DNA of 64,000 nucleotides from Escherichia coli (GCF_001677475.2 NZ_CP015229.1), one strand, 5' to 3'; shown: positions 12,970 through 14,955, counted from the first letter of the stretch. The notes: a model not told the origin generated them from the letters alone. A program made the numbers and translations.

Positions 12970-13782
12970 TTATTTTTTAGCAGAATCTGCGGCTTTCGCA
13001 TCAGCTTCCGGCTTTGCATCAGCCTTCGGCGCTGGTTTCACATCCAGCAGCTCTACGTCAAACACCAGGGTAGAATTCGGTGGGATCCCCGGAACACCCG
13101 CTTTGCCGTAAGCCAGTTCTGGTGGAATAACCAGTTTGATCTTACCGCCTTTCTTGATGTTCTTCAGACCTTCTGTCCAACCCGGAATAACACCGTCCAG
13201 ACGGAAAGAGAGCGGTTCACCACGAGTGTAAGAGTTGTCGAACTCTTTACCGTCGATCAGCGTACCTTTGTAGTTCACTACAACAGTATCGCTGTCTTTC
13301 GGTGCTTCGCCTTTACCGGCTTCTACTACCTGATAAACCAGACCAGTGGAAGAGGTTTTCACACCTTTCTCTTTGGCAAATTTCTCGCGGTACTCTTTAC
13401 CTTTCGCTTCGTTATCTGCCGCGTCTTTTTCCATCTTCGCCTGAGCAGAAGACTTCACGCGAGCTTCGAATGCTTGCAGAGTCTGTTCGATCTCTTGGTC
13501 GGAGAGTTTGCTCTTATCAGCAAATGCATCCTGAACACCCGCGATCAGCTGATCTTTATCCAGTTTGATGCCCAGTTTTTCTTGTTCTTTAAGAGAGTTT
13601 TCCATGTAACGACCCAGCGAAGCACCCAGTGCATAAGCTGATTTCTGATCGTCATTTTTGAACGCTGCTTTGCTGTCAGCAGTTGTAGCAGGTTTTGCAG
13701 CTTCAGCAGCAAAAGTGATCGGTGCATGCAGGGCAACGGCCATTGTAGTCGCCAGCAGCGTTACTTTAAACAGTGATTTCAT
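12970..13782 (-). CDS. fkpA: Periplasmic FKBP-type peptidyl-prolyl isomerase FkpA
   Basis: 270-aa ORF with signal peptide and FKBP domain (GKEFDNSY...LVFDVELL). Confidence 0.95.
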   Translation of the reverse strand: MKSLFKVTLLATTMAVALHAPITFAAEAAKPATTADSKAAFKNDDQKSAYALGASLGRYMENSLKEQEKLGIKLDKDQLIAGVQDAFADKSKLSDQEIEQTLQAFEARVKSSAQAKMEKDAADNEAKGKEYREKFAKEKGVKTSSTGLVYQVVEAGKGEAPKDSDTVVVNYKGTLIDGKEFDNSYTRGEPLSFRLDGVIPGWTEGLKNIKKGGKIKLVIPPELAYGKAGVPGIPPNSTLVFDVELLDVKPAPKADAKPEADAKAADSAKK

Positions 13783-14002: not shown

Positions 14003-14221
14003 ATGCAGGATTTATCATTGGAAGCACGCCTGGCAGAGCTGGAGAGCCGACTGGCTTTTCAGGAAATCACCATTGAAGAACTGAACGTCACGGTGACCGC
14101 TCATGAAATGGAGATGGCGAAACTGCGCGATCATCTGCGTCTGCTGACCGAGAAGCTAAAAGCCAGCCAGCCGTCGAACATCGCGTCGCAGGCTGAAGAA
14201 ACGCCACCGCCACATTATTGA
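14003..14221 (+). CDS. slyX: Protein SlyX
   Basis: 72-aa coiled-coil [31 protein letters not shown]. Confidence 0.9.
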
Positions 14222-14225
14222 GGCG

Positions 14226-14256
14226 TAAAAAAAGCGGGGATTCCCCCGCTTTTTTG
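14226..14256. terminator. Bidirectional rho-independent terminator between convergent slyX and slyD
   Basis: gcgggg-attc-ccccgc hairpin flanked by A7 on one side and T6 on the other. Confidence 0.75.
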
Positions 14257-14270
14257 TCACTTTTTCGGTA

Positions 14271-14861
14271 TTAGTGGCAACCGCAACCGCCGTTACCTTT
14301 ACCGCCGCAGCAGCCTTCGCCGCCGTGTTCATGACCGTGATCGTGGCCATGACCACCGCAGCAACCGTCGTGGTCGTGATCGTGGTGATGATCGTGCGCA
14401 CCGTGAACGTGGCCATGAGCCAGTTCTTCTTCAGTCGCTTCGCGAATCGCCACAACTTCAACGTTGAATTTCAGGTTCTGACCGGCCAGCATGTGGTTAC
14501 CATCAACCACGACGTGATCGTCTTCAACCGCAGTGATTTCAACCGGTACCGGCCCCTGGTCAGTTTCAGCCAGGAAACGCATGCCTACCTGCAGTTCATC
14601 AACGCCCATAAATACGTCTTTAGGAACGCGTTGCACCAGGTTTTCGTCGTACTGACCGTAAGCGTCGTTCGCGCCAACAGCGACATCAAATTTGTCGCCA
14701 ACTTCGTGACCTTCCAGCGCCGTTTCCAGGCCAGAGATCAGGGAACCGTGACCATGCAGGTAGTCCAGCGGCGCACTCACCGGAGACTCATCAACCAACA
14801 CACCGTCTTCTGTACGTACCTGATAGGCCAGGCTGACCACCAGGTCTTTTGCTACTTTCAT
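14271..14861 (-). CDS. slyD: FKBP-type PPIase / metallochaperone SlyD with His/Cys-rich C-terminal tail
   Basis: 196-aa ORF MKVAKDLVVSLAYQVRTEDG...; C-terminus HGHVHGAHDHHHDHDHDGCCGGHGHDHGHEHGGEGCCGG. Confidence 0.95.
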   Translation of the reverse strand: MKVAKDLVVSLAYQVRTEDGVLVDESPVSAPLDYLHGHGSLISGLETALEGHEVGDKFDVAVGANDAYGQYDENLVQRVPKDVFMGVDELQVGMRFLAETDQGPVPVEITAVEDDHVVVDGNHMLAGQNLKFNVEVVAIREATEEELAHGHVHGAHDHHHDHDHDGCCGGHGHDHGHEHGGEGCCGGKGNGGCGCH

Positions 14862-14955
14862 GATATCTCCTGAGCATGGGAAGAATAGTGGCGCAGATTG
14901 TAGCGGAATTCTGCAGCCGTGTACTCACTAGCTTAAAAAAACTCGGCGCATATCG

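Follow-up and report, generated by a model that had tools for sequence, protein, structure and literature searches.

The window analysed here, a stretch of 64,000 nucleotides from Escherichia coli (GCF_001677475.2 NZ_CP015229.1), carries slyD on its minus strand, where the sole sizeable ORF terminating at position 14271 is 14271..14861, with a coding capacity of 196 aa. The product is an FKBP-type peptidyl-prolyl isomerase (PPIase) and chaperone with a metal-binding tail. It matches the NCBIfam equivalog model NF008008 (PRK10737) over its full length (E=1e-128; 426.8 bits, cut-off 174; residues 1-196 aligned with model positions 1-196), and Pfam FKBP_C over residues 4-78 only, a partial match that is expected for a domain split by the IF (insert-in-flap) domain. 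It also matches the solved E. coli SlyD structures 2KFW (residues 1-196), 2K8I (about 1-165/166) and 8G01 (a truncated form, 1-154) end to end. The translation is that of SlyD from K-12 MG1655 and from three or four other E. coli strains, all of which carry RefSeq WP_000861334.1; the UniProt accession of the K-12 protein is presumably P0A9K9. The gene order fkpA-slyX-slyD-yheV-kefB is the same in the ORFs of the window and in 18 annotated E. coli genomes, with kefG likewise among the genes that adjoin slyD in the window, in what is the standard E. coli arrangement. Full-length family match, split FKBP/IF domain, His/Cys/Asp tail and locus context all agree with membership of the SlyD family (NF008008). 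The best-matching complete E. coli genomes show 99.5% identity to the window over 2.3 kb around slyD, and none is identical. The features referred to below are as follows.

12970..13782, minus strand: fkpA (ORF list)
14003..14221, plus strand: slyX, convergent with slyD (ORF list)
14228..14255, no strand assigned: G+C-rich hairpin between slyX and slyD, with an A-run on one side and a T-run on the other (terminator-like site, 12 pairs)
14271..14861, minus strand: slyD coding sequence, 196 codons and a TAA stop (ORF list, NF008008, FKBP_C, PDB 2KFW)
14418..14861, minus strand: codons 1-148, the folded PPIase domain into which the IF chaperone domain is inserted (FKBP_C, solved truncated structures)
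14274..14417, minus strand: codons 149-196, the His/Cys/Asp/Gly-rich C-terminal metal-binding tail (composition, literature)
14367..14396, minus strand: His/Asp run HDHHHDHDHD, gene nt 466-495 (Tandem Repeats Finder arrays, variant alignments, census)
14375..14385, minus strand: first copy of the 11-nt repeat CCACGATCACG, gene nt 477-487 (repeat lists)
14336..14346, minus strand: second copy of the same repeat, gene nt 516-526 (repeat lists)
14277..14288, minus strand: two-copy perfect tandem GGTTGC GGTTGC (Gly-Cys-Gly-Cys), gene nt 574-585 (repeat list)

The hairpin between slyX and slyD is probably a bidirectional intrinsic terminator shared by the two convergent genes, to judge from its match to the consensus; the terminator scan returned this one site, against 1.2 expected from shuffled sequences. 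Between strains the hairpin shows a 1-nt length difference and a few substitutions in its G-run and loop (GCGGGGGAATCCCCGC, GCGGGGAATCCCCGC, GCGGGGATTCCCCGC). Two further ORFs overlap slyD, one of 199 aa on the opposite strand that spans the whole gene (14274..14873, plus strand) and one of 101 aa that overlaps the tail in another frame (14156..14461, minus strand); both are mechanical ORFs in G+C-rich coding DNA, and nothing suggests that they are genes. In strain M21170 (NZ_CP133919.1, 477785..481157) an interruption of about 1.07 kb in the fkpA-slyX-slyD-yheV region carries the annotation of an IS30-like ISApl1 transposase.

The tail of this protein is well known. It is unstructured and binds up to seven Ni(II) ions with sub-micromolar affinity, Ni(II) binding reversibly inhibits the PPIase activity, and the tail, described as "variable among SlyDs", stimulates the release of Ni from HypB (PMC7055735); the same account of an intrinsically disordered Ni(II)-binding tail is given elsewhere (PMC12284835; PMC11198818). 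SlyD is also a common contaminant of Ni and Co immobilised metal affinity chromatography (IMAC), which is why SlyD is truncated in the LOBSTR strain (PMC13397214). Both the role in nickel handling and the contamination of IMAC preparations, which the earlier note had put forward as known biology, are thus established in the literature (PMC7055735; PMC12284835; PMC13397214). Because SlyD of the window is identical to the characterised protein, the known properties of the tail carry over to it, and on the strength of this identity it would be expected to bind several Ni(II) ions and to support [NiFe]-hydrogenase maturation via HypB. The His, Cys and Asp side chains of the tail would chelate several Ni(II), and also Zn, Co and Cu, so that SlyD could act with HypB as a nickel reservoir and donor in hydrogenase maturation; the same chelation would make it the classic contaminant of Ni and Co affinity resins. 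In short, this is textbook E. coli SlyD, whose tail, metal binding, hydrogenase role and nuisance value in IMAC were all known already.

The last 48 residues of the translation, HGHVHGAHDHHHDHDHDGCCGGHGHDHGHEHGGEGCCGGKGNGGCGCH, agree exactly with the string given in the earlier note, and the range 14271..14420 that it attached to them comprises the stop codon, the 48 tail codons and one extra codon (Ala148). The tail consists of 15 His, 6 Cys, 5 Asp, 16 Gly and 2 Glu among other residues, and the remaining 148 residues of SlyD hold 5 His and no Cys. The G+C content of the tail DNA is 62%, compared to 53.5% for the rest of slyD and 52% for the window. The 150 nt of the tail contain 12 repeated 8-mer pairs and 43 repeated 6-mer pairs; the means for 1,277 other 150-nt windows of the 64 kb are 0.44 and 4.6, respectively, and none of these attains the values for the tail, which is the most internally repetitive 150-nt stretch of the window. 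The description of the tail as a low-complexity segment encoded by repetitive GC-rich DNA is therefore borne out by composition, G+C content and k-mer counts alike. The word "repetitive" needs some qualification, however. Tandem Repeats Finder reports only weak arrays in 14367..14396, of period 6 and 12, with 2.4-3.3 copies and scores of 33-44, and the longest direct repeats of the tail are two in-frame 11-mers, CCACGATCACG at gene positions 477 and 516 and TCATGGCCACG at 444 and 510.

The earlier note had also supposed that the repetitive coding sequence would be a hotspot for length variation between strains. We looked for such variation in 5,426 complete E. coli genomes, of which 5,425 match a 249-nt query laid over the tail (the single remaining genome has no match to this region at all). 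In an evenly spaced sample, 59 of 59 full-coverage matches span either 248 or 249 nt. This 1-nt difference lies outside the gene and arises because the terminator hairpin differs in length by 1 nt; the uniform span puts tail variants of at least 3 nt below about 5%. For the census itself, the queries were predicted repeat-mediated junctions with flanks too short to seed on full-length alleles, screened locally against known haplotypes and positive controls; the counts are accordingly a lower bound, covering predicted junctions on known haplotypes. A ranking query made of the del39 allele did not serve, as carriers are inseparable from non-carriers when two-piece matches tie at 100%.

At least 38 of the 5,426 genomes (0.70%) have an in-frame indel in the tail (36 with deletion junctions and 2 more with duplication junctions), and about 99.3% keep 196 aa. 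The variants amount to at least seven length alleles, of 183, 192 (two kinds), 194 (two kinds), 202 and 209 aa, no single one of which exceeds 0.3% of the complete genomes. Each variant type was confirmed by translation and by the length of the RefSeq CDS, and every indel of the census is in frame and bounded by short direct repeats (3-11 nt). The genome with the weakest match to the 249-nt query, HCP4S3_I4, has a slyD of 552 nt with a 39-nt in-frame deletion lying exactly between the two copies of CCACGATCACG. A 65-nt tile over the tail leaves 34 genomes unmatched; known variants explain some of these, and the remaining dozen or so may have indels that were not predicted, or rare SNPs disrupting the 28-nt seed. 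Exact-sequence look-ups were also made in a collection of 15 billion proteins, for which the numbers given are counts of contigs, not of strains. The results of both searches are listed together below.

196-aa SlyD: at least 1,000 contigs
del39, 183 aa: 3 genomes (11-nt repeat, spacing 39); 174 contigs
del12a, 192 aa, ...AHDHDHDGCC...: 12 genome records, 5 of them from derivatives of one isolate (8-9 nt repeat, spacing 12); 693 contigs
del12b, 192 aa, ...AHDHHHDGCC...: 3 genomes (7 nt repeat, spacing 12); 454 contigs
delHD, 194 aa: 17 genomes (5-6 nt repeat, spacing 6); 330 contigs
delHH, 194 aa: 1 genome; 26 contigs
+18 nt, 202 aa, GHDHGH duplication: 1 genome, CP61_Sichuan (7-8 nt repeat, spacing 18); absent from the protein collection
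+39 nt, 209 aa: 1 genome, ERP001 (11-nt repeat, spacing 39; exact reciprocal of del39); 3 contigs
+HD, 198 aa: none of the 5,426 genomes; 375 contigs
C-terminal delGC, 194 aa: none of the 5,426 genomes; 34 contigs
+GC, 198 aa: none of the 5,426 genomes; 8 contigs
del51 product, 179 aa: 33 contigs
Two +12 products, 200 aa: 17 and 10 contigs
del66 products, 174 aa: 6 and 2 contigs
190-aa product: 5 contigs
Three other repeat-mediated variants: 1 contig each

The collection thus holds at least 19 length alleles, and 18 of the 21 repeat-mediated variants that were looked up are present in it. By contrast, none of six in-frame deletions (6 or 12 nt) that served as controls, all lacking flanking microhomology, is on record there (Fisher p = 3e-4, the controls having been looked up via a different index of the same collection). 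The HDHHHDHDHD run is the origin of most length variants (del12a, del12b, delHD, delHH and +HD), and the copies of CCACGATCACG, which lie 39 nt apart, bound the 39-nt deletion as well as its reciprocal, the 39-nt duplication. At the GGTTGC tandem, loss of one unit gives a 194-aa protein ending in ...GGCH (P0005, the delGC allele) and gain of one unit a 198-aa protein ending in ...GCGCGCH (P0034, +GC), neither of which the junction searches found in the complete genomes. The +HD query was shown in a local test to detect its allele, which is carried by a complete genome outside the set of 5,426 (CP057953). A 90%-identity cluster of SlyD in the collection also lists a 66-aa zinc-ribbon protein, YheV (P0040), the product of the slyD neighbour; this looks like a clustering artefact, possibly due to fused or mis-called genes.

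Some records place slyD on plasmids. We rejected the idea of a mobile copy, since these records are either 4.8-5.4 Mb in length or chromosome fragments filed as plasmids. In PLSDB, the "plasmids" NZ_CP141089.1, NZ_CP134663.1, NZ_OL790696.1 and CP125156.1 that carry slyD are all of 4.8-5.4 Mb and evidently mislabelled chromosomes, and the one match labelled "plasmid" among the E. coli genomes is probably another.

Several of the variants have arisen more than once. The three carriers of del39 have three different SNP haplotypes, one of which differs from the other two only 3 nt from the deletion, and one carrier is an O157:H7 strain, other O157:H7 genomes being of full length. The del12a allele occurs on two haplotypes, distinguished by several SNPs to either side of the deletion, of which the closest lies 16 nt from it (upstream of the junction). 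The same protein variant can also result from different changes in the DNA: delHD is due to loss of GATCAC in 4 genomes (the O127:H6 E2348/69 records) and to loss of CACGAC in 13, and +HD is due to two different duplications, on at least five haplotypes. Different SNP backgrounds and different DNA events together indicate that these alleles recur independently, a pattern that recombination does not easily explain. Two separate 6-nt deletions, delHD and delGH, occur together in a 192-aa Escherichia allele (P0022, 23 contigs), so slippage products can accumulate in one lineage.

The breakpoints at direct repeats, the indel lengths equal to repeat spacing, the independent recurrence and the preference for repeats over non-repeat positions are all as expected for a slippage site, and we infer that slippage is the mechanism of the tail indels. 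The tail is made of few amino acids encoded by few codons, and its DNA is accordingly rich in in-frame direct repeats, each 3-11 nt long. If two of these became misaligned during replication (slipped-strand mispairing), the interval between the copies would be deleted or duplicated, and the outcome would be the in-frame alleles, which range from 174 to 209 aa. The prediction that tail length varies between strains has therefore held, the tail not being identical in all of them, with at least seven length alleles among complete genomes. The word "hotspot" needs more care: it is justified in so far as the variants sit at direct repeats and recur, but not as a description of standing variation, which is small. 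We therefore regard the tail as a modest slippage hotspot, the term referring to the mutation process, for which recurrence and repeat specificity are the evidence.

The tail does not qualify as a contingency or phase-variable locus. It has no long repeat tract, its best arrays having 2.4-3.3 copies and its repeats being otherwise dispersed and of at most 11 nt. Only 38 of the 5,426 genomes vary, all by multiples of 3 nt in a screen made for in-frame alleles, and clonal sets keep a single allele, as seen for E2348/69 in four records and for EC0026B in five.

The encoded protein sequence is nearly constant at the level of substitutions. An alignment of 22 alleles contains 24-26 synonymous SNPs (two of which may be alignment artefacts), one real amino-acid change, H175Y, and no indel in codons 1-148. 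The sampled full-length alleles, which diverge by up to about 5% at the DNA level, all encode the same tail, except for the one H175Y allele. This allele is a full-length slyD from E. coli M8 (L015, 210..800), and two further substitutions are listed outside the 22 aligned alleles; strains RSHH22 and SK6988 give the same match as M8, for which alone the translation was made, and all three strains are mouse-derived. Synonymous polymorphism reaches 0.076 per nt in the tail and 0.034 per nt in the body of the gene, a ratio of about 2.3, and consists almost wholly of C/T changes at third positions; this may simply reflect the two-fold degenerate codons of His, Asp and Cys, or a weaker constraint on codon usage. 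This high density implies that the tail DNA is neither young nor invariant, and that it is the protein sequence that is conserved.

The rarity of the length variants and the unchanged tail of the full-length alleles are most likely explained by purifying selection on the length and content of the tail, i.e. on the number and arrangement of its ligands. The rarity could partly reflect a young age of the variant alleles, and the exact form of the tail is not universally constrained, since its length and sequence differ between genera. Four other explanations, namely artefact, single origin with recombination, adaptive tuning and drift, are less well supported than purifying selection. That errors of sequencing or assembly in this repetitive, G+C-rich DNA have produced the variants might be suspected from the abundance of repeats, from the uneven quality of some of the long-read assemblies among the carriers and from the +18 allele, with its one genome and no counterpart in the protein collection. 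Against this, the indels are clean ones of 6-39 nt that keep the frame and end at repeats, unlike the homopolymer errors typical of long reads; the same alleles are present in independent assemblies of one lineage (four of E2348/69 O127:H6 and five of the EC0026B derivatives) and, in the protein collection, on 693, 454, 375, 330 and 174 contigs of several sources, with del12a of Shigella dysenteriae found together with a linked Met-to-Ile change on 113 contigs. An artefact thus appears extremely improbable to us. It is unlikely, too, that each variant arose once and was spread by homologous recombination, in a tail that is not unusually mutable. E. coli does recombine often, so that some shared alleles could owe their spread to recombination, and del12b, delHH, +18 and +39, each seen on only one or two haplotypes, may well have a single origin each, but SNPs at distances of 3 nt (del39) and 16 nt (del12a) would require imported tracts of less than about 90 nt; delHD and +HD each go back to different DNA events; and 18 of the 21 repeat-mediated variants exist, compared to none of the six controls.

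If the tail were a tunable, contingency-like locus, with indels selected by lineage for Ni/Zn storage or for regulation of the chaperone, one would point to the variants that look fixed in lineages (delHD in EPEC E2348/69, del12a in Shigella dysenteriae), to the group of about ten genomes of 5.0-5.4 Mb with delHD, to the different tails of different genera, with SlyD of 190 to 205 aa in Enterobacterales, and to the fact that each indel changes the ligand count. We hold this to be very unlikely, given repeats of only 2-3 copies, far short of the tracts of true contingency loci, changes that are all in frame and hence allow no on/off switching, an overall frequency of 0.7% with each allele rare, and no evident link to host or niche in the host entries of the match tables. 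The more specific proposal that recurrent in-frame indels act as a low-rate tuning knob, by which EPEC E2348/69, Shigella dysenteriae and the +HD carriers have fixed altered ligand counts, seems highly unlikely; if true, it would mean altered Ni/Zn buffering, hydrogenase maturation or Ni-regulated chaperone activity in the niche concerned. A further view is that the tail is functionally loose and drifts neutrally in length, its uniformity in E. coli being due to recent common ancestry. In its favour, the tail is a disordered one that varies from genus to genus and is missing in Thermus SlyD, and an E. coli SlyD reduced to a single metal site has been characterised for hydrogenase maturation (PMC7055735). 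Neutral drift nevertheless strikes us as improbable, because synonymous diversity is highest in the tail of all parts of the gene and yet a single amino-acid change was found in 22 alleles, and because the common length is shared by 99.3% of genomes. Many slippage products arise and each of them stays rare, which is the pattern expected under purifying selection and not under drift. Taken together, we are highly confident in an account in which a Ni-binding tail generates repeat-driven slippage alleles that are kept rare, in a manner that fits purifying selection.

What this adds to the known biology of SlyD is that the tail repeatedly yields repeat-mediated in-frame variants, and that more than 99% of E. 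coli genomes keep 196 residues all the same, which suggests that the number and arrangement of ligands are under selection. In the literature searched, we found no published report of a natural length polymorphism of the SlyD tail, which is not proof that none exists. The length-variant result is a small population-genetic footnote to known biology. The natural alleles of 183, 192, 194, 198, 200, 202 and 209 aa form a ready series for relating Ni(II) stoichiometry or hydrogenase maturation to tail content, and strains with the shorter alleles might show weaker binding to IMAC resins.

The closest comparison is with SlyD of K-12, which has all of its 196 residues, its flanking genes and its terminator hairpin in common with the window; 12 of the 591 nt of slyD differ, all synonymously and 7 of them in the tail, and one extra G in the terminator stem is a further difference. 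The natural length alleles of E. coli and Shigella (among them WP_023063096.1, WP_032201519.1, WP_000861330.1, WP_000861331.1 and WP_193579140.1) share the gene, the locus and residues 1-148 with the window, which represents the common 196-aa form, and derive from an allele of the window type by one repeat-mediated in-frame indel, with loss or gain of 2-13 tail residues, including several His, Asp or Cys ligands. In other Enterobacterales the architecture of the window protein is retained (SlyD of 195 aa in Klebsiella, 198-205 in Citrobacter, 191-200 in Serratia and 199 in Rahnella) and the tails are built from the same kinds of motif, namely HGHVHG, runs of HD and HG, GCCGG and a terminal GGCGCH; the HD, HG and GCC units differ in number and order, however, so that the length and sequence of the tail clearly diverge between genera, in line with the literature. 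Further afield, SlyD of Helicobacter pylori has the FKBP and IF domains and a His/Cys-rich tail that takes part in nickel trafficking with HypB (PMC7055735; PMC3292732), and its tail binds about 2.4 Ni, compared to up to 7 in E. coli (PMC7055735), whereas SlyD of Thermus thermophilus has the FKBP and IF domains without an extended tail, and a single HGHxH site (PMC7055735; PDB 3CGM). [quoted passage not shown]
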